In this document: positions 6,077-56,459 of the stretch, one piece after another
Position numbering within the stretch: the stretch's first letter is position 1
Layout: the number at the start of each line of letters is the position of its first letter
Source: Candidatus Bathyarchaeota archaeon
Lineage (GTDB): Archaea; Thermoproteota; Bathyarchaeia; 40CM-2-53-6
DNA length: 64,000 nucleotides
Direction of reading: 5' to 3'
Assembly: GCA_005888745.1 (NCBI GenBank)
Contig: VBBS01000030.1
Location: forward strand, 140,175 to 204,174
Translations under genes and position numbers: made by a program
Notes under the pieces: generated by a model
What the model was told of the DNA's origin: nothing
What the model saw: only the letters and a program-made list of their open reading frames with translations
Database searches by the model: none

Positions 6077-6805
6077 TTAGTAGTGCCTTACAAAGGTCTC
6101 AACTGGATGGACAAGCTCTAGCGATGGCTGGAGGTCCAATTGGAATAGCTCTCCAGACGGGGTCTTAGAGAATCCGTCCTCGCCTTTTCGAACTAGGTCG
6201 TCAACGATGGAGACTCGCCTCCTGATGTAGTCACTCTCATCAGCGGCCGGTAAGGGGCCGAAGACTTGCGGCGCGGCAAGTCGGACCGCGGCGTACATTG
6301 ACCATGCTAGATCCCGTATCTCCCACTGTGCGTCGGGAGCGCAGCGGAGATTGAAGAAGTGGATGAGCTGGCGCGGGCTCATGCTCATTACAATGTTCGT
6401 GGTTGCTGCATTGGGCCTGAGGTATCGGCTGTCTTCCGCTTTTATGCCTTTGGCAACGAGTCCTTCCTCGGCTTGACGCGTCAAGTCCATTACGTCTGTG
6501 AAGTTTAGGTCTATCTTGTGTCCCTGTATCTCAACTGGGACCTTGAGGTCATGGGGTATTCCGGGTGGTTTCAAGTATCCATAGCTTCGTGTGACGCGCA
6601 CATAACGTTGTGATTGCTGACTGAAGGAGGCGATTCTATGTCTTACAATCTGATGACTGGCTGCTCGGCTTATTCCCTGAAGGTCAAACGTGAGGCTCCC
6701 ATGCCGGAGCATGCTCTCTCCTCCCATCTTCACTCCGGCTTTCTCCAAGTTTCTGGTTAGCTCGGGATAGTTGGTGTAGCTGAACAGGATTGCTTTGCTT
6801 GCCAA
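6077..6805 (-). CDS. thyX: FAD-dependent thymidylate synthase ThyX, catalytic core with all signature motifs.
   Basis: RHRIASFSQQSQRY (the ThyX RHR...SxxQxSxRY signature) and a downstream NLRCAPDAQWEIR motif. Alignable to Thermotoga and Mycobacterium ThyX from the HG..EH region onward. Confidence 0.8.
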   Translation of the reverse strand: MASKAILFSYTNYPELTRNLEKAGVKMGGESMLRHGSLTFDLQGISRAASHQIVRHRIASFSQQSQRYVRVTRSYGYLKPPGIPHDLKVPVEIQGHKIDLNFTDVMDLTRQAEEGLVAKGIKAEDSRYLRPNAATTNIVMSMSPRQLIHFFNLRCAPDAQWEIRDLAWSMYAAVRLAAPQVFGPLPAADESDYIRRRVSIVDDLVRKGEDGFSKTPSGELFQLDLQPSLELVHPVETFVRHY

Positions 6806-6813
6806 TTCTCAAC

Positions 6814-7272
6814 CTAACTTCTTGTTGTCGATATCGCGAGTGCGGAGGCGATGATCGGGGCGGCTTCATTCAAGGTCCCGACAAGTTCTTTCGTTAATGG
6901 TAGGTCGCTGGGGCCTCGTGCTAGCTCGACTAGTACTCGTAGGTTTGTTGTGATGAGCCATCGCTGTTCGTCGATCTGGCTTGTCTCGAAAAACTTGGAT
7001 GATTCCATGAGGAAGAGGATCTCCTTTTCGTCAGCCTCCACTAGCCAGGTGATGCTGTTGTGCTCGAGAATATCGTAATGTCCCAGCTCAAGGGCACGCT
7101 TCAACAGTCCACCTATTCGCTCGGCGTCGAAGATTTTTTCCCCATCCAGCACCTTGTCTTGTGAGGTGTGCGTGAACAGTTCATATCCCGGATGGGGAGA
7201 ATAGCATGATCGCATGGCTGCGGCGCATACTCTTTCAAGGTCAGGCTCGTAGCCTACAAGGCGAACACGCAT
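6814..7272 (-). CDS. ThyX-like degenerate paralog. It has the ThyX N-terminal strand, the HxxxEH region and a C-terminal helix region, but lacks the RHR/SQRY catalytic motif. It lies 8 nt upstream of thyX in a different frame.
   Basis: MRVRLVGYEPDLERVCAAAMRSCYS aligns with the ThyX N-terminus. GHYDILEHNSITWLVEA aligns with GHFSVLEHASVSFYITG. The RHR motif is absent. Confidence 0.5.
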   Translation of the reverse strand: MRVRLVGYEPDLERVCAAAMRSCYSPHPGYELFTHTSQDKVLDGEKIFDAERIGGLLKRALELGHYDILEHNSITWLVEADEKEILFLMESSKFFETSQIDEQRWLITTNLRVLVELARGPSDLPLTKELVGTLNEAAPIIASALAISTTRS

Positions 7273-10810: not shown

Positions 10811-11479
10811 CTAGGTCGAGATCTGTGGGACTTTTACGGTTTCCTCTTCTTCCTCTTCCAGACGTGTCTTGATCCGTTTCAACCGGAAGAAGTCTTCTCT
10901 AGATCTCTCCTGTAAACTCATCTCGATGTACCGGATTGTGTTCTCGATTCTCGGGACGACAATGTTTTCTAGGCTGTTGACCCGTCTCTTGGTGGCGGAG
11001 ATTGCTTCAGCGAGTCTTCGAATGGCGGCTTCGGCCGCTGACAGCTCGACTACGTTCTTGATGGCTTCCGTCATTAGCGCGACTGCTTCATCGAGTTTGG
11101 CGCTGCTTCCGATCATGGAATATGGAAATCCTTCAAGAGCTTTCAGTTTTACCGAGACGTGGGGTATTGATACGCCGATGACGTTTCTGGTCGACGCGTC
11201 GACATCAAACCGATCCTGGGTTGTTAGCGATGTTTCCTCAACTCTATTGAAGCCCATGAGCATCTGGGCCTCGGTGAACTTCTCGTAAGCCTGGAACAAA
11301 AGGTCCTGCGTCTTCTGGCGTAGAGCGGTGATTTCGCGGGCGAACTGGAAGAACTCGATCATCAACGCGTCCAATTTCTCCCGTAACAGGTCTCCGCCTC
11401 TTTGTGCAATACGTCGTCGTCGCCGGAGGGCGATAAGCTCCATCCGGGTTGGACGAGCGCCCGCGACGACCTCCGACAC
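10811..11479 (-). CDS. atpD: A/V-type ATP synthase subunit D
   Basis: TRMELIALRRRRRIAQRGGDLLREKLDALMIEF is the canonical subunit D N-terminus. Protein is 222 aa. Confidence 0.85.
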   Translation of the reverse strand: MSEVVAGARPTRMELIALRRRRRIAQRGGDLLREKLDALMIEFFQFAREITALRQKTQDLLFQAYEKFTEAQMLMGFNRVEETSLTTQDRFDVDASTRNVIGVSIPHVSVKLKALEGFPYSMIGSSAKLDEAVALMTEAIKNVVELSAAEAAIRRLAEAISATKRRVNSLENIVVPRIENTIRYIEMSLQERSREDFFRLKRIKTRLEEEEEETVKVPQIST

Positions 11480-14007
11480 TACGAGGTCTTCCCACGATAT
11501 TTCGGATGATATTTCTTGATCGTAGCTGGGTCGATACGCTTCAGCTCGCTTTCAGGCAAGACACTAAGCAGATTCCAGCCAAGATCAAGGGTCGCATCGA
11601 TATCGCGATTCTCGTACAGCCCTTGATTGATGAACTTCTTCTCGAAACTGTCCGCAAAACCCAGGTAGAGCTTGTCTCGGGCAGAGAGAGCCTCTTCACC
11701 GATGACGGCGACGAGGTCACGGAAGCTTCGTCCCTCCGCATAGGCATAGTAGAGCTGGTCCGAGACTTCACGATGATCCTCTCGGGTCCGACCCTTTCCA
11801 ATACCCTCCTTCATCAACCGCGAGAGAGAGGGTGCAGGGTCGATAGGCGGGTAGATGCCTTTCCGGTGTAATCCTCGATCAATGTAGATCTGCCCCTCGG
11901 TGATATACCCGGTGAGGTCGGGGATGGGATGAGTCACATCATCCCCGGGCATTGTAAGAATCGGCATCTGCGTAATCGAGCCTTTACTACCATGAAGTCT
12001 TCCCGCTCTCTCATAGATTGTAGAGAGATCCGTATTGTGGAGAAGTAGAAGACCGCAGGCATCTACGAAGTTGTCGGATCCTTCAACGTCGATGTCGTAG
12101 ACCCACTCCTCTGTGGGTTCGACCTGCTCCATCTCTTTGATCTTTACACAGTCGGTGTCGTTTGGCGAGGCCGTTTGGCTTCTCACGAATGTCGAGAGGT
12201 AGACTTGGTGGGCTTTTCCTCCGACACCCGCGGGAGTGAGTGACGGTGACCGGTCAGGATACAGCGTACGACACGAGAAAATGAGATCGTCACGGAACCC
12301 CGGGCATATAGTAGTCATGCCGTATTGTTTCGTCTTGTACCGGGCGTTTTGCGAAAATCCGCTTCCATCATAGTACGTTTTGAAGAACGCCCCTCGGATT
12401 GGCCTTGGGGCAGAGAGAATGGCGCTGGGTATCCGTTTGTGGGAAGCTCGATGACCGCATCCCAGCGAGTCATTGAGAAAGTCGTACGCGTGTTTGCGTT
12501 GGGTTCCAACCCTCCAAGTTCCTGACCTCTTGTCACCGATCTGAATAGTAGGCGGGGCTCTTCCAAAGACACTTGTGTAGCATTCAGCTGAGTCATCGAT
12601 GAACTCTGTAGAGTTGTTGTTGATGAGAACTTGGTGTACCCATTTATCGTGCCTGCGACTGTACCACCGAGAGGAGTGACCTTCGGAAACGTAGTAGCCA
12701 AGGTATCTAGCAAGTTCCGGTGTTAGGGCAATCTGCCGATGGAACCGTTTCTTTACGCTTGGAATCTCAACAGTTTCCCTGGAAACCCGGTCCTCCGGGA
12801 TTTTCGCCACATGTGCGAGCGAGTCGCCAACTCCAAGCCGCCCAGCTTCCACAGCTGACAGTTGTCCGTCCTTGGCACTGAAGACGCTGTGGTTGGGAGT
12901 TACGATTGTTTCTCCGAGTTGCGTCTTGATGCGCGTAAGCCGACCTTTGTACGGGTGCCGAACAATATGTCTGACTGGGCGGAACCCGCTCCTGCCGTCG
13001 GTTGTCGTGGAGAGCGCGCACCATCCGTCGATCTTCTTCCTCTCTACGGTCCCATCGTTCTGGAGGGGACTTTCTATCATTTTGAAGAATTCGCTTAGAG
13101 AAACGATTCTAACTGAGCCTTCAGGATCTCGAAGGACAACTCTACGGCTTCCATCGACACTATACATGTAGCCAGGGTATCCTCGGCGTCCCGGAACTTC
13201 TTCTCTGGCTGCGGAAATTTCTCGGAGAGCTTCTGCATAGTTTGTCATGTCGGTAAGAATGACCAGGACGTGGGTTCCAAGTTTGACAGCGAAATATTCG
13301 GCGGCGGTAAGCGCCAACCTCGGAGTCAGTATTCGTTCGATGGCAGGGTCGTCGGCTAGGTTGACGAACATAGTTACGTGGTCGAAGGCGCCTTGTTTCT
13401 CGAAGTCGTCTCTGAAAAAGCGTGCTTCGTCTGCGGTGATTCCCATTGCTGCGAAGACCGTTGTGAACGGTTCGTCTGTGCCTCGGACCTTGGCTTGGCG
13501 GGCGATCTGAGCCGCGATTTGGTTGTGTGGCAGTCCGGATGCGGAGAATAGTGGGAGTTTCTGGCCTCGGACGAGTGTGTTCATTCCATCAATGGCGGAG
13601 ACGCCTGTTTGGATGAACTCTCTAGGATATTCGCGGGCGAAAGGGTTGATGGGGCTGCCGTTTACATCGAGATAATCGTCAGGGATGATTCTCGGACCGC
13701 CGTCAGTCGGTCGGCCGCTGCCGTCGAAGATCCGTCCGAGCATGTCCTGTGAGACGGGGAGTTTCACTGTTTCTCCGGTGAAACGAACAGTTGTTGCGGA
13801 AACGTCGAGTCCCGACGTTCCTTCGAAGATCTGGACGACTGCAACGCCGCCGCCAACTTCTAGGACTTGTCCTCTTCTTTCTTCGCCGCTTGGAGTCCTG
13901 ATTCGCGCTAGCTCGCCGTATCCTACTCCCCTTACCTGTTCGACGAAGATGAGGGGTCCGGATATTTCCCGTACTGTTCTATACTCGAGACCTGCGAGCG
14001 AGACCAT
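11479..14007 (-). CDS. atpB: A/V-type ATP synthase subunit B interrupted by an intein (842 aa precursor; about 466 aa of extein).
   Basis: The extein sequence ...[14 protein letters not shown] / [12 protein letters not shown] is contiguous in normal B subunits. The N- and C-terminal regions are typical of subunit B. Confidence 0.85.
12034..13161 (-). other. Intein in atpB (about 376 aa) with a LAGLIDADG homing endonuclease. Ser1 is the nucleophile, the C-terminus is HN, and the +1 residue is Thr.
   Basis: Starts [10 protein letters not shown] (block A). TPNHSV (block B). [11 protein letters not shown] and [22 protein letters not shown] motifs. Ends LLLHN / [11 protein letters not shown]. Junction codons were checked against the DNA. 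Confidence 0.75.
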
Positions 14008-14008
14008 T

Positions 14009-17000
14009 CTATTTCGCCTTGACGGCGGGCGCCTTTAGGCTCTGGAACTCTTGGTCGAGGCGCTCGTTCAAAGATTGGGAGTAGTCAGTGAACTTTTCCG
14101 CAGCAGTGAGTCTCATGCGGCTGATATCGTTCTTGACCGGCAGCTCGAGAACTTTCTGGAGTTGGATGTTTTCGTCGACTGCTTTCTGCATCAGGTTGTA
14201 GTAGTGGAGGATTGTACGTATCATATTGTAGGTCTTCGTCTTGTCGCAGTAACTGTCGGCGGGGTTGTAGGATTGCTGCATTAGGAAGTCTTCCTTGATC
14301 ATCTTCGCAGCTTCCAAGATAACCCGTTGTCCCTCAGACAGGGCGTCAGGACCGACGAGCATGACGATCTCGCGAAGCTCCTCATCGCGCTGGAGAAGAT
14401 ACATTGCTACTTTCCGCAAATCAACCCATTCTGGTCCAACTTCTTTCGGATACCAAGTCTCGAGAGTGTCCAGATAGAGAGAATAGCTCGTCAGCCAATT
14501 GATGGCGGGGAAGTGGCGTCTCTTGGCAAGCTCGGAGTCGAGAGCCCAGAAGACCTTGACTATCCGGAGGGTGTTCTGGGTTATTGGCTCTGAGAAGTCT
14601 CCCCCAGGCGGAGAAACAGCGCCGATGACACTGATCGAGCCTTGCTTGGATTCAGATCCCAGGACCTCTAGTCGTCCCGATCTTTCGTAAAAGTCGGCGA
14701 GGCGGGATGCAAGATATGCTGGGTAGCCTTCTTCACCAGGCATCTCCTCTAGACGACCGGATATCTCTCTGAGGGCTTCTGCCCATCTGCTTGTAGAATC
14801 TGCCATCAACGCGGTGTCGTAGCCCATGTCGCGGAAGTATTCTGCGATCGTGATACCTGTGTAGACGCTTGCTTCCCGAGCGGCGATGGGCATGTTCGAA
14901 GTGTTTGCGACTAGTGTCGTTCGGTTCATGAGCGGTTGTCCAGTGCGAGGATCGAGAAGTGTCGGGAATGTTTCAAGAACTTCCGCCATCTCATTTCCTC
15001 TCTCACCACAGCCAACATAAACGATGACTTGCGCGTCGGCGAATTTTGCCAAAGCCTGCTGGAGGACTGTATTGTGGCAGACCATAGGTCCCCATCCAGC
15101 GATGAAATTCTCGTAACCTGGGACCGTGATGTCGTAGACTTCAGAGCTGGTAGTGATTTGTCGGATTTCGGAAATCTCGTCGAAGAAAGAAAAGTCGGAT
15201 AATTCTGAGAGTTTCTCGAGCTTCTTCAGCGCTGTATTTTCGTTCGCGCCTGGCGCGGATTTGTCTTTGATTGCAGATATGAGGCGTCTGATTACTGTAA
15301 TGCCCGGTTTCTCTCCATGCGTTGTGTAGTTGTACATGTTGAAGCCAGATTTTCTCAGGCTCTTTCTTGATGTTTTACCAAGAGCTGCGGCCTCCGAAAG
15401 GACTGATGGGTCGATGGGGATGACGTCGACGTTGCTGTATCCTCGCTTGTCAAGCTTCAGGAAATGATCTATCTTCCTTAGGTATGGATACGGTCGTTGT
15501 TTCGGCAGAAATTGGTATAATTCGGAGATTGGTCGGCGTCCCTCAATACTCATGCGATGGTACGTGTGACCGCCGACTTCGCTGTGCCTTATTCTATGCA
15601 GCACTCCCAACCTTGTCAGCAGATAGGAAATTCCGAGGGCCATCTCCTCACTTGCAGTGGAGATCTCTAGAGTACCTTTGCTGAAGGATCCATCGCCGGC
15701 GATGTACCCTGCGAAGAATCCTCCGATCACCTTGTCCGGGGACATTGAGACAAGGTCCGGAACCCCTAGTGTGCGAGATTTCTTCTTCTTGGGGAACCCG
15801 ATACCGACCAGTAGATGGACCAGCGCTCTGCTGTCGATTTGAGCCAACAATCCTCCACTGTGCGTCCCGCGACGAGGGGTCAAACCAAACAGGTCGTTCG
15901 CTAGCCGGGAGAATCTGCGGAGTACCTGCTTGTCATTATTGAACAGGATAACCCTTCCCCGTCCTCGAAGCATGCCGTCAGAGAGGATTAGTCCGAGAAA
16001 CTCTGCCAGTTCCAGCGTCATTTCCTTGGGGAGTTTTATGCTCCAGCCTTGTCGCTGAGCTCTGACGGACCCAACCGGAATCTTCTTACCTGTGGCCTTT
16101 GCAAGGCGCCTCAAGAAGCCGAGAGTGGGCCTCGCCCTTCTTCTCCAACAGTTCAGGAGACTCTTGTAGCTCACATCGAGGTTCCTCGCAAGGACTTTGA
16201 GGGCCATATCCGCTGTCAGGCTCTCTATGGTTGCGACCATCATCCTGATGGCTTTGGGATCGTCGACTCTGGTGTCGTCAGGTAGGAGTTTGTAAGGGTC
16301 GATCGGTTTCTGATCTAGACTGAGTGCGATCTTTCTTGGTGTTAGAAGGTATGCTCCGGGCCGGAGTAGTTTGGCAGAGGTCTCTTCTATTGTGCCGTCG
16401 CGGCGTAGTTGCTGGAGCTTGTGAACAGGGGTGACCCTTACCCTGCGCCCGCTGCGGGTCTGAATTTCGAGCAGTTCATTGGTGGACCCTTTGTAGCCCA
16501 TTGAGGCCTCGGCCTTTGTGAACTCGGGGTTGGATAGGGATACAACTCTAGGAGGGTTGGAATAAGAATAGAGAGTCTCATCTCCGTTGTCATCGAAGGC
16601 CTGCGAATTCCCATTATCTCGCACAAGCTCTCGGATTCTCCTTATCCTGCCATCAGCAAGCAGGACGGGAGTCTCTCCGTCCATGCACTTTCCACTTCCG
16701 AACGGTCCGGGAACGGCTGCTGTTCCGCCTTTGGCGACGGGGAAGAAGAAGTCGATGATGCGTTGGCCAGTTATGAGTGGGATTTCGGACGGGAGCTTGC
16801 GTTTGAAGGGCCTGGCGATTCGTACGGGCCAGGTGTGCATCATGAACAATGAGACGGGTCCCGTCTTGGTCTCCAGTTCACCGATCGGCTCGGTGATCGT
16901 ATAGTCGCCTTCTGGGACGATTGAGATGATCTTTCCGGACTGGTTTGGCGGGACCATTATCCGCTGCGTGATCAGGGTTGTCTCTTTGACAGTCCCTAGA

Positions 17001-17410
17001 ACATCACCACCGGAAACCTCTACTCCTCTATCCGCGGTTGGTACGAAGTGCCACTTTTTTGATCGGTCGATCGCGGCAGGGGCAAGGCCTCTTTTGATGA
17101 AGGGTCCAGTCTTTTCAAAAAGAACTGTTAGTGGGCGTTGGATCCCGTCATAGATCTGGCCTAGGATCCCGGGTCCGAGCTCGACGGACAGTGGTTTGCC
17201 TGTGCGTTCTACTTTTTCGCCGGGTCGGAGGCCGGCGGTTTCCTCGTAGACTTGGACTGTGGCGTTTTCGCCGTCTATCTTGATGATCTCGCCGATGAGG
17301 CCTAGGTCGCCGACGCGGACGACTTCGTGCATTTGGGCGCCTAGCATTCCTTCGGCGACAATGACGGGGCCCGCGACCCGTGCGACTTTTCCAGGCTTGA
17401 AGTCAGGCAT
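14009..17410 (-). CDS. atpA: A/V-type ATP synthase catalytic subunit A interrupted by an intein (1133 aa precursor; 594 aa of extein).
   Basis: The P-loop GPFGSGK is followed directly by the intein. The extein resumes [29 protein letters not shown]- and C-terminal domains are typical of subunit A. Confidence 0.9.
15071..16687 (-). other. Intein in atpA (539 aa) inserted in the P-loop at the classical VMA/AtpA-a site, with a LAGLIDADG endonuclease. The N-terminal boundary is good to within 1-2 nt.
   Basis: [13 protein letters not shown] (block A, Cys1). TPVHKL (block B). [14 protein letters not shown] and [21 protein letters not shown] motifs. Ends WGPMVCHN / TVLQQ. The C-terminal junction was checked against the DNA. 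Confidence 0.8.
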
Positions 17411-28951: not shown

Positions 28952-29080
28952 TGGTGGGGCTGGCAGGATTTGAACCTGCGATTTCGTGGGTTCCTGGCGA
29001 GACAGATTGCTCCCAAGCCACGCGGATTGTCCGGACGCATCGAGGATATTGTCCTCTAGACCTGGCTATCCGACAGCCCC
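28952..29080 (-). tRNA. tRNA with about 50 nt of intron sequence. The isotype was not resolved. CCA is genomically encoded.
   Basis: Acceptor GGGGCTG/CAGCCCC is perfectly paired. Canonical T-arm GCAGG-TTCAAAT-CCTGC. Discriminator A followed by CCA. The body is too long for an intron-less tRNA. Confidence 0.55.
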
Positions 29081-46988: not shown

Positions 46989-47022
46989 GCTCGAGCATTC
47001 GGATGTGAGATTTTGGAGCCCC

Positions 47023-47108
47023 GGATGGGGGTTGAACCCATGACCTACGGCTTTTTTGGCATTTACAAAGCCGTCGCTCTACCACTGAGCTACCGGGGCA
47101 GGCATGGA
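47023..47108 (-). tRNA. tRNA-Thr (anticodon TGT) with an 11-nt intron in the anticodon loop. CCA is encoded.
   Basis: GCCCCGG-TA-GCTCAGTGGTAGAGC-G-ACGGC-[TTTGTA + intron AATGCCAAAAA + A]-GCCGT-AGGTC-ATGGGTTCAACCCCCAT-CCGGGGC-T-CCA. Confidence 0.65.
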
Positions 47109-47156: not shown

Positions 47157-48418
47157 CTAAGACGGCGAGTTTGCGATGCGCATCCTGTTGGCCGCTCGGA
47201 CAAGCGCCTCTACTCCCGGCAGGCTCTGCCCGGACAAGAGGGAAAGCATTGCTCCGCCTGCGGTGCTGACATGGCTGAACTTTTCCTCTATGCCCTGTAT
47301 TGATGCCAGGCCGACCAGATGTCCTCCTCCTATGACGGTGTAACCATTGCTATCGACCATCGACTCGAGCAGTTGCCTTGTTCCCTTTTCAAACCCGTTT
47401 CTCTCAAACACTCCAAGAGGGCCGTTTGCAACTGTTGTGGCCGCTCCTCTTACGATCTTGGAATATTTCTCCAGTGTTATCGAGCCGATGTCAAGAGCCT
47501 CTTCTTCCATGGAGGGAGAGTTGACGGGTTGGTCGACCCTCCTACCTAGCGTATCCTCGTACGCTAAGTCCAAGGGGACTTCTATGTGATCCGCATACCT
47601 CTTCGTCAGATTTCTTGCTCGGTCTAGGAACTGGTTGAAGTCGTGGATTTCTTCTTCGTTAATCTTTGTTTTTACCTCCCGGGCTCGAAGGAAAAGTTTC
47701 GCCGGTACTCCTCCTAGCAAAACCTTGTCTGCTTTCCCTCGCGACAATATGTTTTCGATCACTGGGATCTTGTCTTCAACTTTAGATCCGCCGAGAGAGT
47801 AAACGCATGGTCTCTTTGGTTCTTCAAGGAGGGTTGAGACTGCGTCTAGTTCTTTCTCCATGAGGCGGCCAGCTGCGCTGGGCAATAGTTCCGACAGGCC
47901 TGCGATGGAGGGCTGAGACCTATGGGCTGTTGCAAAGGCGTCGTCAATGTAGAGATCGAAGAGCGGTGCCAGGCGTCTGACAAAATGCGTCTTGACCAGT
48001 TTTTCGCGTTTGTCGTCGATATTTTCCTCCGCGCAGAATCTCAGGTTGTCGAGAACAAGGATCTCACCAGGTTGGACCTTTGTTATTTTCTGGATGGCAT
48101 GAGGACCGATGACGTCATCTACGAACTTGATTTGTTGCGAGCAATATTGCGCGAGGAGACTTGAATGGGGTTCGAGCGATGTGAAGTCATCCTTTCCGGG
48201 TCTGCTTTGGTGAGAGCCGAGGGTGACACGTGCCTCGTCCAGCTCGGAGAGGGTTTTGGAGATTGCCTTTATCCGGGTATCATCTAGAATCTGGTGTGTC
48301 GAGGGATCTAGGGGAACGTTGATGTCAACTCTGAGAAAGACCCTTTTGTCTCGCGTCTCTACATCGTCAAGCGTTAGAAAATCGTATTTTTTCAGATGAG
48401 GATCCTCTCGCCGACATC
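47157..48418 (-). CDS. pgk: Phosphoglycerate kinase. The frame is broken in codon about 11 by a run of six A (6 T on the plus strand at 48388..48393). The ATG at 48416..48418 restores MSARGSSSEKYDFLTLDDVETRDKRVFLRVDINVPLD if one A is removed.
   Basis: Continuous PGK homology: N-terminus RVDINVPLD...ILDDTRIKA, C-terminus GGGHLVGLASIQGIEEKF...GGAMLSLLSGQSLPGVEAL. The ORF-track entry 47157..47885 is only the part downstream of the first in-frame TTG. Confidence 0.75.
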
Positions 48419-49419: not shown

Positions 49420-49429
49420 CTGAAGTAGT

Positions 49430-49562
49430 GCCGAGGGAGGGATTCGCACCCTCGATCTCCGGGAAGCTTTCTCTCTCCGGAATCCACCCTAGCCCAGGAT
49501 TATGAGTTTCACCCTCGCGGAGGGCGAGCCCGGCGCCTTAACTAGGCTAGGCCACCCCGGCG
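49430..49562 (-). tRNA. tRNA with a long (about 58 nt) intervening sequence between the anticodon-stem strands. The anticodon was not resolved (possibly xGC). No encoded CCA.
   Basis: Acceptor GCCGGGG/CCTCGGC (one G-U). D-arm GCCT-AGCCTAGTTA-AGGC. Anticodon stem CCGGG...CCCGG. T-arm GAGGG-TGCGAAT-CCCTC. Discriminator A. Confidence 0.45.
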
Positions 49563-52054: not shown

Positions 52055-52310
52055 CATCGGTGGCAGAACAGTTCTTGTCCCAATCGGACTTTGCAAGTCT
52101 GATTTCTAGTCCCAGTTAGAGGTCTGTACTCACGGCGAGTGTGAACTGTTCTAGGTGCATTCGCTCGGCTTGAAACTGTCGGTTTGGCTAGGAACTTTTC
52201 ATGGATGTCCGAGGGGACCGCTCATGACGGGCGAGATGCCTGAACCATACCCCATTCTTGTCAAGTCTTAGGAGGAGACCGAGAGTTGAGGTTGTCTTGT
52301 CTTATTTTGT

Positions 52311-55300
52311 CTAAAAAGGGAGGGCGGAGGCGTTGTCGCGCCTCTTGATGTATCCTTTCTTCCAGAACACTGCCAGCGTTCCTGCAATTCCTACTATTGC
52401 TGCCGATGTGATCGTTGCCTGTCCGTTGCCGCTACTTAGCCACGGTAGTCTGACTTCGAATGTTGCGACTGAAGCTGCGTCGAGTGGGCCTGACATGTGT
52501 GCCTTTGCTAGTACTGCATATGTTCCGATTAGCGCCTTGTCGGTGGAGAGGCTGAGGGTTGCCTTGTAGAGCCCGTTGGTCTGGGCTACGAGGACGAGGT
52601 TGGTGGTGGTGCCGTTAGGGTTGATGACGATGGCCGTCACCTGAGCGCTGGATGAGGTTACTGGGGCTCCGTTCAAGGTTGCTAGCACGTAGATCGCTAC
52701 TTTGTCCCCTGGGAAGTAGACTGATCCAACAGTCACGGTCGTTGCGAGGCCTCCTGATGCAGGTGCGGTTGTAACCCTGAAGTCTACGCTAGCTCTGCCG
52801 CCGAAGTACCGGTCCATTGCTTTGATCAAGTGCGGGCCGGGTTGTGATAGAGGCACGTCGAAGGTGAAGTTGAACGATCCATTCTTGGTGTTGGTGAAGC
52901 CGACAAACATGTCGTCGAAGGTGGACTATGATTTTTGTTCCCGGGCTACCGCTGGATGGGGTAACTGTTAGGGTTGGAGGGGGTAGAATGGTGACAGTTC
53001 CATCTGTCATGCTGTTGTCCGCCGGGGTTGGGTCCCCGGTGAGGAGCACTGTGGCGGAAATCGTGTAGTTGCCTGCCGCCAAGCCTAGCGTGTCCCAGGA
53101 GACACTGGCATATGCGTAGTAGGAGCAGCCTATGCAGTTGGGTGGGGGTGCCTGTACGAAGACCCCGTTGAGAGTTGCTACAGCCGCGGAGTTTGCGTAG
53201 ATCGTAACGCCGACCGTGTCGTTGAGGGTTCCAGTATTTGCAATGACGACTTGGATGCCAACGAACGCACTGGAGACCGCAATCTGCGGATAGGCTTGGA
53301 TGCTGACGATCGCGACGTCGTGCGGGGGCCTATTGAGTACATTTACCACGTGCGATGTAGTGCTGGAGAGGCCGCTGCTATCGATGACTGAGAGCGTGAC
53401 GGTATAGTTTCCGGAGGCGAAATATGTGTGGTACATTGTGGGATAGTTAGAAGAGTATGATCCTGATGAGTCTCCAAAGTTCCAGAAGAACTGGTTGATG
53501 AAACCGTCGGGGTCGGAGCTTGGGGAAGCGTCGAAGAAGACCTGCCCGCCAACTAGCGGATTCGCGGGTGTGAAGCTGAACTGGGCTACCGGATTCTCAT
53601 CGACTAGGGGTACGAGCACGAAACCGTCCTGTGTGGTCGACGGGATCAGTTGGCCAGCCCTATCGGCTAGTAGTGTATTGCTGAGGTGAAGATTGTATAG
53701 CCCGCTCTGGCTGGGCATGAGTGTTATGGCCGCTAGAACGCTGGTGCCATTTACCGTGGGTGCGCCGGCCAGTAGAGTGAATGCGACAGTTATCATTCCA
53801 TTCGAGATGGTTCTGGTTGATACGAAACCGGTGTTCGTGTTGAGGGCGTTCTGCCAGAACGTCCCGAGGACGATGCTCGCATTGAAGGTCTGGAATGCGG
53901 TGTTGTTATAGTTCAGGGTGAATTGCCAGCCGAATAGGTTGACAGCGTTGACTGCTTCAACGTTCACCGTGAAGCTTCCGCTCGCCACCGTCATGTTCTG
54001 GATTATTGGGGAGCTTGGGCTCATGTTGACGGCGACTAAAGCAGGACCCGAGACGGCTGGATGAACGGGTATTGTGCCAATAGTTGAATTGACGAGGTTT
54101 ACGTTGTCTGTAACGGTCAGTATTACGGTGTAGTTGCCTGGATTGGAGTATGAGTGGCTCGTCGTGGGTACAAAACCGTTGGTCGTCGATCCGTCGCCGA
54201 AAGCCCATAGCCAGTTTGTAATAACGCCGTCAGGGTCGAAGCTGGCTGAGCCTTCAAAACTGACGGGCTGACCGGCGGTTGGGTCTGCAGGAGTGAACGT
54301 GAATATGGCTATTGGCGCCCGGTCGCCGGTTAGACCTACGTTTACTCTGAGGAATGCATGACTTGGTTGAGCATTGATAATGATGTTGCCGAGCGAGTCC
54401 CTTGCTGAGCCTGTTGCTCCAAGATCGTCGGCGACTCTGAGGGTAACATTGTATGATCCGGCAGTGGTGTAGTTGTGGTTTAGGAGGGCGCCCGTGACTC
54501 CGAGATCTTGCGTGCCGTCTCCAAAGTCCCAGAAGTACCCGGCGGGATTAGCGATCGTGCCATCGCTGTCAGTGCTACCTTTGCCCTCAAAGACCACGTT
54601 GAAAGGTCCCGACCGGGTGTCGGGAGTCGCGATGAGCATGGCGCGAGGTGGATCATTCGTAATGGTTTCGCTCGCTCCAATTCCGGCCAAAACGCCTGGT
54701 ATGAGGGCGCCTGTACTGTCAACAAAAATCACGTTGGTTATACGGAACAACTGCGGGGCGCTCTGTTTTGTCAGTAGTTCGAAGTTGACATTTGCTAGAA
54801 TATTGTTCGTTGAGAGTGTGACTGTTGGGTTGGGCGCTAGTATTGTCAGGAAGACCGTGATTGATCCATTCGACCCGAAAGAGTTTACGGTGAAAGAGCC
54901 GAACGCTTTGTTGCCCGCGATCAACCCGGCCCAGTTCGCTGCCGCAGTGGTTGTCTGCGCACCGAAGAGTACACCGTTAGCCGATCCGTCGGGATATGTG
55001 GATGCGGCGCTAGGGTCGCCTTGAGGGATGAACGCTGTTGCATTGTAGTTTATCGTGAATTGCCATCCATCAAGGTTTGAGATCGGGTTCGAGGCGCTCG
55101 CGTTTACAACTGCGCCGACCCTGAAGCTTTTCGCGTCCGAGGCGGAGGACGTTACTAAGACGTCGGTCTGGGTGAGGCTTGCAGCATCTAGGTCAACGAC
55201 GTGGACTGCGGCGGCATGAGCAGGTCTTACTCCAGTCGATGTGAGTCCGGTTAGAAGTACAGCTAGAAGGAGGAATGTTGAGAGCAATTTGCTCATTTCT

Positions 55301-55341
55301 GAGCTAGGTTTCATAGAACTCTCTAAGTTGCTCCATTTCAC
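52311..55341 (-). CDS. Large cell-surface protein with multiple PKD domains and a C-terminal TM anchor. The frame shifts near 52915: ORF 52789..55341 carries the signal peptide and PKD domains, and ORF 52311..52910 carries the terminal beta-domain and TM anchor.
   Basis: Signal peptide. Repeated PKD hallmarks (YFWDFGDGT, WLWAFGDGS, FFWNFGDSS). The two ORFs encode the same peptide TLTVTPSSGSPGTKIIVH up to the shift. The downstream frame continues as a credible domain ending AAIVGIAGTLAVFWKKGYIKRR. Confidence 0.6.
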
Positions 55342-55432
55342 TATGAATAAAAATCTTTAGGGCTGGGGATATCCAGGGCTAACTCGGGAATGAAATTGAA
55401 AGGCAGAATCGACTTCGACCAGGAGGTCTAGG

Positions 55433-55804
55433 TTGTGGCTTCCATGGCCGAAGGAGGCGCGGTCCGTTCGGCTCATCGATTCGGTTTGGGTTAGAGAACC
55501 CTTATCCTCGAAGAGAACGAATGCTTCTATGGCGATGAAGTGGATTTTACTGATATTCTTGCCGTTCCTTGCCGGGATCTCAGTGTTTGTGGCATTCGCT
55601 CAGCCCGTGACAGCTATAGTCTGGATTCCATCGTTCATAGCTTGCGTAGCCGTTGTCACTTGGTATTACGAGAAGCATCATCAAGGAGAATCCACTGATA
55701 CTTGGGAGGTGTCCGAGGAAAAATGGCAGAACACTCTAGCTCAGCACGTTGACAAGATGAAAGAAAAGCGCGAGAAATCATCGGATAATGAAACCCCCCA
55801 GTAG
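55433..55804 (+). CDS. Small membrane protein (2 TM), hypothetical
   Basis: Two hydrophobic helices and an acidic C-terminus. Confidence 0.35.
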   Translation: MWLPWPKEARSVRLIDSVWVREPLSSKRTNASMAMKWILLIFLPFLAGISVFVAFAQPVTAIVWIPSFIACVAVVTWYYEKHHQGESTDTWEVSEEKWQNTLAQHVDKMKEKREKSSDNETPQ

Positions 55805-56260
55805 CGACGGCGAATCGCGCAGGTCCGTTCGTGAGGACTCTGCGTACTTTGCCAGCCAAAGCAAATTACACCTAAGGGAGAGACCCTGCACGTCTGAGTT
55901 TTCCGGAGTCTAGCTTGAGAATGATAAATCCAAAGGAGCCATCTGTGTGGAGACAGCTATGGATTCAGATCGCCATAATGGTTCCGCTTCTCACTGATGC
56001 TCTCGCGTTGATTACGCTTACCCTCGTCCACAACTTTATTCATGACCGGATTGATATCGATTTGGTTGGGCCTGCACGCACGGAGATCTCGTCACCCAGG
56101 GGAGCTTATTCGTACTATTCGGGGACCACGGACATTGCAGGTCGACCAGGCGTCTCGTTCGGAACTTTTTCCATTTTCCCGATTTGCATCAGAAATCATT
56201 GCGGTCGCGATCACAATGCTGTTCCCATAAGATCATCGATACTCAATAAAATAGAATTTG

Positions 56261-56367
56261 TGGAGCCCCGGACGAGATTTGAACTCGTGACCTTTGCCTT
56301 TTTGAGGAGTCTACCAAGGCAACGCTCTTGGCTGGTTGTGGTATCTACCAGGCTGAGCCACCGGGGC
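56261..56367 (-). tRNA. tRNA-Thr (anticodon GGT) with two intervening sequences: about 12 nt in the anticodon loop and about 18 nt in the D-arm. CCA is encoded.
   Basis: GCCCCGG-TG-GCTC-AGCCTGGTA[GATACCACAACCAGCCAA]GAGC-G-TTGCC-[TTGGTA + GACTCCTCAAAA + A]-GGCAA-AGGTC-ACGAGTTCAAATCTCGT-CCGGGGC-T-CCA. The acceptor and T-arm are nearly identical to the tRNA-Thr(TGT) at 47023. Confidence 0.55.
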
Positions 56368-56459
56368 ATTCGAGAATGGTCGCGGTTTTCCCGAGCTATA
56401 TGAATTGCTAGAAATGTCTTGACGGGCGTATGCTAGGACCACGATGTCCAACATAACCA

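Follow-up and report, generated by a model that had tools for sequence, protein, structure and literature searches.

A close described counterpart of the gene reported here is the D-loop intron of pre-tRNA-Thr2(UGU) of Aeropyrum pernix, which is spliced in vivo (Hirata et al. 2011, PMC3241643). The purified α2β2 endonuclease alone cleaves this intron, more slowly than an anticodon-loop intron, and the cleavage needs the Crenarchaea-specific loop of the enzyme (PMC3241643). For Thermoproteales, introns are described at positions 22/23, 30/31, 45/46, and 59/60 (Sugahara et al. 2008; Fujishima et al. 2010; PMC4033280, PMC4090602, PMC8450103), and the published non-canonical sites comprise 20/21, 22/23, 25/26, 29/30, 30/31, 45/46, 53/54, 56/57, and 59/60 (PMC4090602). 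The tRNA-Tyr of Cenarchaeum symbiosum has a bulge-helix-loop intron, and non-canonical introns of Thaumarchaeota need a clade-specific intron model in tRNAscan-SE (PMC3241643, PMC8450103). Non-canonical and relaxed motifs are handled only by the α2β2 and ε2 endonucleases, according to PMC5829648 and PMC4033280.

We analysed a 64,000-nt stretch of DNA from Candidatus Bathyarchaeota archaeon (contig VBBS01000030.1), termed the window. Sequence comparison confirmed that one of its loci is a real threonine tRNA gene of soil Bathyarchaeia, tRNA-Thr(GGU), with two short introns that are predicted to be spliced by protein. The first-pass annotation of this DNA had proposed two intervening sequences in the gene, one of them in the D-arm. 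Inserts of 18 nt and 12 nt were indeed present, and removal of both yielded a canonical tRNA. The distances it had read from the sequence, 27 nt separating the D-stem strands GCTC and GAGC and 19 nt separating TTGCC from GGCAA, were also correct. The 5' part of the gene on the minus strand reads GCCCCGG TG GCTC AGCCTGGTA GATACCACAACCAGCCAA GAGC G TTGCC TTGGTA GACTCCTCAAAA A GGCAA, and the 3' part continues after GGCAA with AGGTC ACGAG TTCAAAT CTCGT CCGGGGC T CCA. As RNA, with the introns in parentheses, the 5' part is GCCCCGG-UG-GCUC-AGCCUGGUA-(GAUACCACAACCAGCCAA)-GAGC-G-UUGCC-UUGGUA-(GACUCCUCAAAA)-A-GGCAA. The coordinates are summarized in Table 1.

Table 1. Positions of the tRNA genes, introns, and splicing elements in the window (^ marks a cut or an exon junction, here and in the text).
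Feature	Coordinates	Strand	Details
tRNA-Thr(GGU) gene	56261..56367	-	107 nt; three exons and two introns; encoded CCA at 56263..56261
TATA-like box TTCATATAG	56396..56404	-	29-37 nt upstream of where the tRNA starts
D-arm intron of Thr(GGU), AUACCACAACCAGCCAAG	56327..56344	-	18 nt; between G22 and A23
Central helix, 5' strand: D-loop U17a G18 G19 U20 (exon)	56347..56350	-	pairs with intron GCCA
Central helix, 3' strand: intron GCCA	56329..56332	-	followed by the bulge A G ^ A23
Canonical intron of Thr(GGU), GACUCCUCAAAA	56300..56311	-	12 nt; between A37 and A38
tRNA-Thr(UGU) gene	47014..47099	-	one intron; encoded CCA
Thr(UGU) 37/38 intron	47053..47063	-	11 nt
tRNA-Pro(UGG) gene	28952..29080	-	two introns; encoded CCA
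Pro(UGG) 22/23 intron	29027..29055	-	29 nt
Pro(UGG) 37/38 intron	28991..29011	-	21 nt
tRNA(CAU) gene, elongator Met type	49429..49561	-	three introns; CCA not encoded
tRNA(CAU) 30/31 intron	49508..49529	-	22 nt
tRNA(CAU) 38/39 intron	49482..49499	-	18 nt
tRNA(CAU) 45/46 intron	49457..49474	-	18 nt

Like the Aeropyrum case, the window gene is a threonine tRNA with an intron in the D region; splicing by protein is experimental in Aeropyrum, whereas here it is predicted from sequence. The two differ in three respects. A canonical bulge-helix-bulge motif has been ascribed to the Aeropyrum D-loop intron, whereas the window D-arm has a central helix with 1-bp flanks. In addition, the window gene carries a second, canonical intron, unlike the reported Aeropyrum intron, and the hosts are a hyperthermophilic crenarchaeon and a mesophilic soil member of Bathyarchaeia, respectively.

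When both inserts were taken out in silico, what remained was a perfect cloverleaf of 77 nt with a terminal CCA, which ARAGORN identified as tRNA-Thr(ggt), while removal of either insert alone gave no tRNA call with the same program. Excision of the D-arm insert restored the D-stem GCUC/GAGC and the D-loop AGCCUGGUA. The acceptor stem, the discriminator U73, the T-arm, and the CCA end are all intact. ARAGORN did not call the unspliced gene with or without its intron option, and the score against the Rfam tRNA model was 25.1 bits, below the threshold, with the acceptor and T arms alone being aligned. A permissive Rfam scan of the window detected no second Thr(GGU) gene. The TATA-like box has a counterpart in the closest relatives, where the motif TCTAGCAAYTCATATAAC occurs at an equal distance from the gene, as judged by eye. 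A 162-aa open reading frame (ORF) on the plus strand (55915-56403) runs antisense across the gene and is almost certainly spurious.

The canonical intron provided the geometry of cleavage. U32U33G34G35 pairs with UCAA of the intron, and the cuts UA^G and AA^A each lie 2 nt 3' of a helix strand. The central helix (H) is 4 bp long, the exon helix (h) is the 5-bp anticodon stem, and the intron helix (h') has 0 bp, so that the 5' cut falls in a loop. This intron thus has the relaxed form (hBH with a loop, i.e. bulge-helix-loop) and not the strict hBHBh' form. It resembles the Cenarchaeum symbiosum intron, in which one splice site is likewise in a loop and whose host is a mesophile of the same superphylum.

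The cleavage rule taken from this intron was applied to the D-arm of the same gene. The predicted cuts are A21 G22^A at the 5' end of the intron and A G^A23 at its 3' end, in each case 2 nt 3' of one strand in the UGGU/GCCA helix. Both flanks consist of 1 bp, namely C17-G24 for the exon helix and one pair for the intron helix; hence, the D-arm formally falls outside the strict hBHBh' definition and, with less than 2 bp on either side, does not clearly fit the usual relaxed ones (hBH, HBh'). Bulge-helix-bulge-like motifs had been expected at the inferred junctions. For the D-arm, the 4-bp central helix and the 2-nt cut geometry bore this out, but the flanking helices of 1 bp each did not; because these are almost absent, the motif is a very relaxed bulge-helix-loop and no full bulge-helix-bulge. 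The insertion is non-canonical, as had been noted, and its position can now be given as 22/23, a published site (PMC4090602) and therefore not unprecedented.

Folding of the precursor, which had been proposed as a check, recovered neither central helix with meaningful probability in ViennaRNA; the UGGU/GCCA helix had a probability of approximately 0.001 in the free precursor, in which other pairings were preferred. Helices of 4 bp are too weak for free-energy folding, and we therefore relied on comparison, which supports the motif instead. In a single sequence, a helix paired at 4/4 positions in the right register arises by chance in approximately 2% of cases per register; chance is excluded for the D-arm helix by the comparison across relatives and not by the window alone. 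A loose single-sequence scan (H = 4, one flank of at least 2 bp) was discarded, as it returned dozens of chance matches per gene and missed the true D-arm intron.

The pattern searched for in metagenome contigs had an insert of 8-38 nt flanked by GCUCAGCCUGGUAG and AGCG, with a GGU anticodon loop after it, and at least 120 loci were obtained. Relatives with a D-arm insert at the same site amounted to at least 96 distinct precursors from soil, peat, and sediment metagenomes. The 96 precursors among the matches listed contained at least 91 distinct D-arm inserts of 13-34 nt, versus 27 mature sequences. As the search pattern fixed the 5' strand of the helix, variation within Thr(GGU) can be read on the intron strand only. 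The central helix was paired at 4/4 positions in 73 of the 91 inserts among the matches listed; in 1000 shuffles of the inserts, the corresponding number averaged 5.5 and reached 13 at most. When the partner was slid by 1-3 nt, no more than seven of these 91 inserts gave a perfect helix. The strand GCCA was found in 64/91 of the listed inserts, and the variants GCCG, ACCA, GCUG, and ACUG still pair.

Conservation within the listed inserts was restricted to the first position (A in 89/91, 1.8 bits) and positions -6 to -2 (0.9-1.4 bits), with approximately 0.1-0.2 bits per position in the interior. The conserved 3' end thus reads GCCA-A-N and pairs with D-loop U17a-G18-G19-U20. In 44 of the 91 listed inserts, against 5.5 expected, the intron-side helix reached 2 bp or more (HBh'), and no listed insert lacked both such a helix and a perfect central helix. 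The exon-side helix was the single C17-G24 pair in every copy among the matches listed. An alternative pairing of GCCA with U8-G9-G10-C11 is less likely; it offers no placement for the 5' cut and fails for ACCA, for ACUG, and for the proline gene described below, although only three variant inserts among the matches listed discriminate against it.

These data also bear on the register of splicing. The D-arm intron might be excised at 21/22, or with a CUGG/CCAG helix that would leave an 11-nt D-loop (AGCCUGGUAAA); the mature tRNA would distinguish the registers by its junction, GGUAGAGC versus GGUAAAGAGC. The window junction by itself is ambiguous, because G and GA are repeated at both ends and the intron ends in G, and ViennaRNA gave CUGGU/ACCAG a probability of 0.05-0.10, higher than that of UGGU/GCCA. 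However, 56 of the 91 inserts among the matches listed end in A, C, or T, which fits G22^...^A23 only, and the junction was placed at 22/23 for this reason. Moreover, CCAG occurs in a single subfamily, some members of which have it disrupted (e.g. ACAG), whereas GCCA is kept, and the 21/22 register has no 4-bp helix. We thus consider another register quite unlikely.

A second explanation is that the locus is a pseudogene, i.e. a copy of tRNA-Thr that an insertion in the D-arm has disabled, as would suit its rejection by the standard finders and a weak splice motif that gains nothing from free-energy folding. Nevertheless, the exons are near-invariant in more than 90 distinct relatives, in which the insert varies freely yet keeps the splice-site helix; the parts of the tRNA outside the inserts are intact, the promoter-like box is conserved, and the window has no other Thr(GGU) gene. 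Inactivation is accordingly very improbable. That the insert is retained in a mature tRNA with an expanded 27-nt D-loop is hardly credible, even though the D-stem GCUC/GAGC can form around it, since a stretch of 13-34 nt with such a variable interior (among the matches listed) is unfit as a structural part of a tRNA, its conserved part is exactly what the splicing helix needs, and intron-less orthologues of other lineages among the matches listed share the D-loop AGCCUGGUA. Group I and II self-splicing introns, which have a ribozyme core, were rejected on size, the inserts of the window being 11-29 nt instead of hundreds of nucleotides, and no Rfam intron model matched at the tRNA loci.

Splicing at 22/23 and 37/38 is thus retained: the locus is very probably a functional Thr(GGU) gene of soil Bathyarchaeia, whose 107-nt precursor would lose two introns by protein splicing. 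Relatives and a second tRNA family share the insert position and the helix geometry, which, together with the intact exons, supports this reading as introns. Positions of this kind, next to a helix, are where archaeal splicing endonucleases cut. At 37/38, the 3' cut would be set by the UUGG/UCAA helix, the anticodon stem, and the 3-nt bulge AA^A between them; the 5' cut would fall in the loop, 2 nt beyond the helix. At 22/23, the four D-loop bases that directly precede A21, UGGU, would pair with GCCA close to the intron's 3' end, placing the cuts AG^A and AG^A 2 nt 3' of both helix strands. By analogy with Aeropyrum pernix, both sites would be cut by an archaeal splicing endonuclease of broad specificity, and ligation of the exons by an RtcB-type enzyme would give the standard 77-nt tRNA with its pre-encoded CCA. 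The spliced junctions would read GCCTGGTAG^AGCGTTGCC and CCTTGGTA^AGGCAAAGG. Cleavage, ligation, the type of enzyme, and the order of intron removal are inferred. The relaxed-specificity endonuclease suggested in the first-pass annotation would agree with the literature (PMC3241643, PMC5829648). No match to PF01974, searched for as the splicing endonuclease gene, was found in the 39 window ORFs scanned, most of them longer than 150 aa.

Intron content varied among the relatives. Among the matches listed, 63 distinct Thr(GGU) genes had the D-arm and 37/38 introns, 15 had the D-arm intron and an intron in the T-loop (59/60), 12 had the D-arm intron only, and six had all three. The T-loop intron, observed in many relatives (L130, L149, L157, L160, L167, and others), is 18-24 nt long, has the form UUCAAA^AGC...GCUGAAAN^N, and combines a central helix UUCA/UGAA with a strong intron hairpin. 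Seven D-arm introns (L149, L166, L176, L189, L199, L237, and L244) are off the standard register: they end in CACUGG plus 2 nt and fit only a helix shifted by one base, with ACUG and 4-nt bulges. The resemblance of their 3' ends (CCUGGUAG) to the exon D-loop (CACUGGUG) hints at an origin by duplication or at a different mode of recognition. In one relative (L197), Thr(UGU) has an apparent 22/23 intron, as parsed by eye.

A pattern scan of a genome collection gave at least 121 matches, mostly intron-less Thaumarchaeota, and is uninformative on frequency. No D-arm insert was present in 117 of the 121 matches listed, and three Thermoplasmata-type genes had one extra base; the only named genome with the insert among them was a Bathyarchaeota bin (L119). 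Unlike the window gene, the Thr(GGU) genes of Thaumarchaeota among the matches listed lack the D-arm insert while having the same D-loop, AGCCUGGUA.

The window contains three further tRNA genes, and a permissive Rfam scan revealed no other tRNA loci. As had been read from the sequence, the D-loop of the sister gene Thr(UGU) is normal, and 11 nt are inserted behind position 37. The gene scored 63.5 bits with Rfam, its intron has a 4-bp central helix and a 5-bp exon helix, and ARAGORN called the spliced product Thr(tgt) and miscalled the unspliced gene as Tyr(gta). Two genes had been credited with 50-58 nt of intervening sequence; the extra lengths, 50 and 58 nt, stood, while the sequence did not prove to be one intron each but two in the proline gene and three in tRNA(CAU). 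As had been stated, three of the four genes encode CCA; tRNA(CAU) is the exception. In the Thr(UGU), Pro(UGG), and CAU genes as well, intron removal restored the correct tRNA according to ARAGORN, and the total for the window is eight introns in four tRNA genes.

The 37/38 intron of Pro(UGG) has a full hBHBh' motif (h 5, H 4, and h' 2 bp), and its 22/23 intron has the central helix GUCU/GGAC with a 4-bp intron helix. BLAST of the exons against the first 246 loci found no orthologues of the proline or CAU genes; proline orthologues (L247, L248, and L249) were reached through the neighbouring phosphoesterase gene. All three keep both the 22/23 and the 37/38 introns, and the intron strand at 22/23 is GGAC or AGAC, pairing with D-loop GUCU. 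Their intron helices at 22/23 differ entirely in sequence and yet pair (GGAC/GUCC, AGGCU/AGCCU, and AGAC/GUCU). Because the proline D-loop GUCU pairs with GGAC, the pairing at 22/23 tracks the D-loop sequence and not a fixed word. One of the orthologues (L249:4546-4683) has three introns, one at 15/16 in the D-loop (central helix GGCU/GGCC) besides those at 22/23 and 37/38.

For tRNA(CAU), three introns gave a 4-bp central helix at every site, the intron helices measuring 5, 4, and 3 bp; with two introns, the motifs were poor, at most two of four central pairs being formed, and this solution was rejected. ARAGORN called the unspliced gene Pro(tgg), which is wrong, and the spliced product Met(cat). 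Distant orthologues, parsed by eye, fit introns near 30/31 and at 45/46; in these, a 45/46 helix CUGG/CCAG replaces CCGG/CCGG of the window, and the 30/31 helix pairs at 3/4 positions. The window gene has A18 and G55 (T-loop UGCGAAU), and the distant orthologues have G18/U55, which is near-universal in tRNAs. A solver that removed introns automatically until ARAGORN accepted the product was abandoned, since ARAGORN accepts unusual variable arms and the isotypes obtained were therefore spurious; the additional genes were parsed by hand instead.

With the exception of 38/39, the intron positions of the window have been reported before from Crenarchaeota and Thaumarchaeota, and so have relaxed motifs and genes with as many as three introns. 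Position 38/39 is absent from the site list of PMC4090602, in which 22/23, 30/31, 45/46, and 59/60 are present. The window genes resemble the multi-intron genes of Thermoproteales cited above in having up to three introns per gene, relaxed motifs, and intron positions that recur in different tRNAs, and differ from them in belonging to another lineage. Eight introns in four genes exceed the mean of 0.84 per gene reported for Thermoproteales and the 71 introns in 46 genes of Pyrobaculum calidifontis, four genes being too few to generalise. A literature search, weak as evidence of absence, found no paper tying Bathyarchaeia to non-canonical tRNA introns. The host lineage and the apparent intron density may thus be unreported, four genes being too few for a record. 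The locus leaves the current understanding of the mechanism of archaeal tRNA splicing unchanged. What it adds is a further host group: tRNA genes with several introns, some at non-canonical sites, are known from thermophilic Crenarchaeota and from Thaumarchaeota, and here they are seen in soil Bathyarchaeia, which are abundant and uncultured. The more than 90 distinct 22/23 introns form a natural series that shows the minimal motif kept by selection.

A wider proposal, which we advance with considerable doubt, is that Bathyarchaeia of soil, peat, and sediment are an unrecognised second hot spot of tRNA intron proliferation, with approximately two and at most three introns per gene at 15/16, 22/23, 30/31, 37/38, 38/39, 45/46, and 59/60, and with about half of the D-arm introns having a bare 4-bp helix. 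If this is true, such bare-helix introns would be looser than the hBH and HBh' forms documented as cut by known endonucleases, and would point to an endonuclease or cofactor of still broader specificity acting at moderate temperature. The tRNAs would also be systematically under-counted and misnamed in genome bins of Bathyarchaeia. In the window, ARAGORN and Rfam at its curated threshold missed two of the four tRNA genes, and ARAGORN misnamed the other two. Since genes are missed or misnamed, tRNA counts used for bin quality and inferences on codon usage are wrong when made without intron-aware tools.

By its protein homologues, the window belongs to Bathyarchaeia. The serine hydroxymethyltransferase (SHMT) gene of the window has identical copies in soil metagenome assemblies, and the top homologues among those with a name share 82-83% identity with it and are annotated as Candidatus Bathyarchaeia or Bathyarchaeota; the phosphoesterase gene bears the same label. 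In four relatives represented by short loci (L208, L174, L172, and L245), Thr(GGU) apparently lies near the rpiA-side block, which occupies 49.8-52.0 kb of the window. In the window, approximately 4 kb (~52300-56260), including a gene for an 850-aa PKD-repeat surface protein, separate this block from Thr(GGU), and blastn found no match to this stretch in those four loci.

Some protein genes of the window showed irregular structures. The phosphoglycerate kinase ORF at 47157-47885 (minus strand) spans only positions 158-379 of the profile, and relatives align up to 48459; its N-terminal part may lie in another frame. A homologue of ThyX (Thy1) extends over two adjacent ORFs (6077-6805 and 6814-7272, minus strand), which may reflect a frameshift or a genuinely split gene. 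The ORFs of the A and B subunits of an A-type ATP synthase (11479-14007 and 14009-17410, minus strand) both contain intein splicing domains, and that of the A subunit contains a LAGLIDADG endonuclease domain as well.
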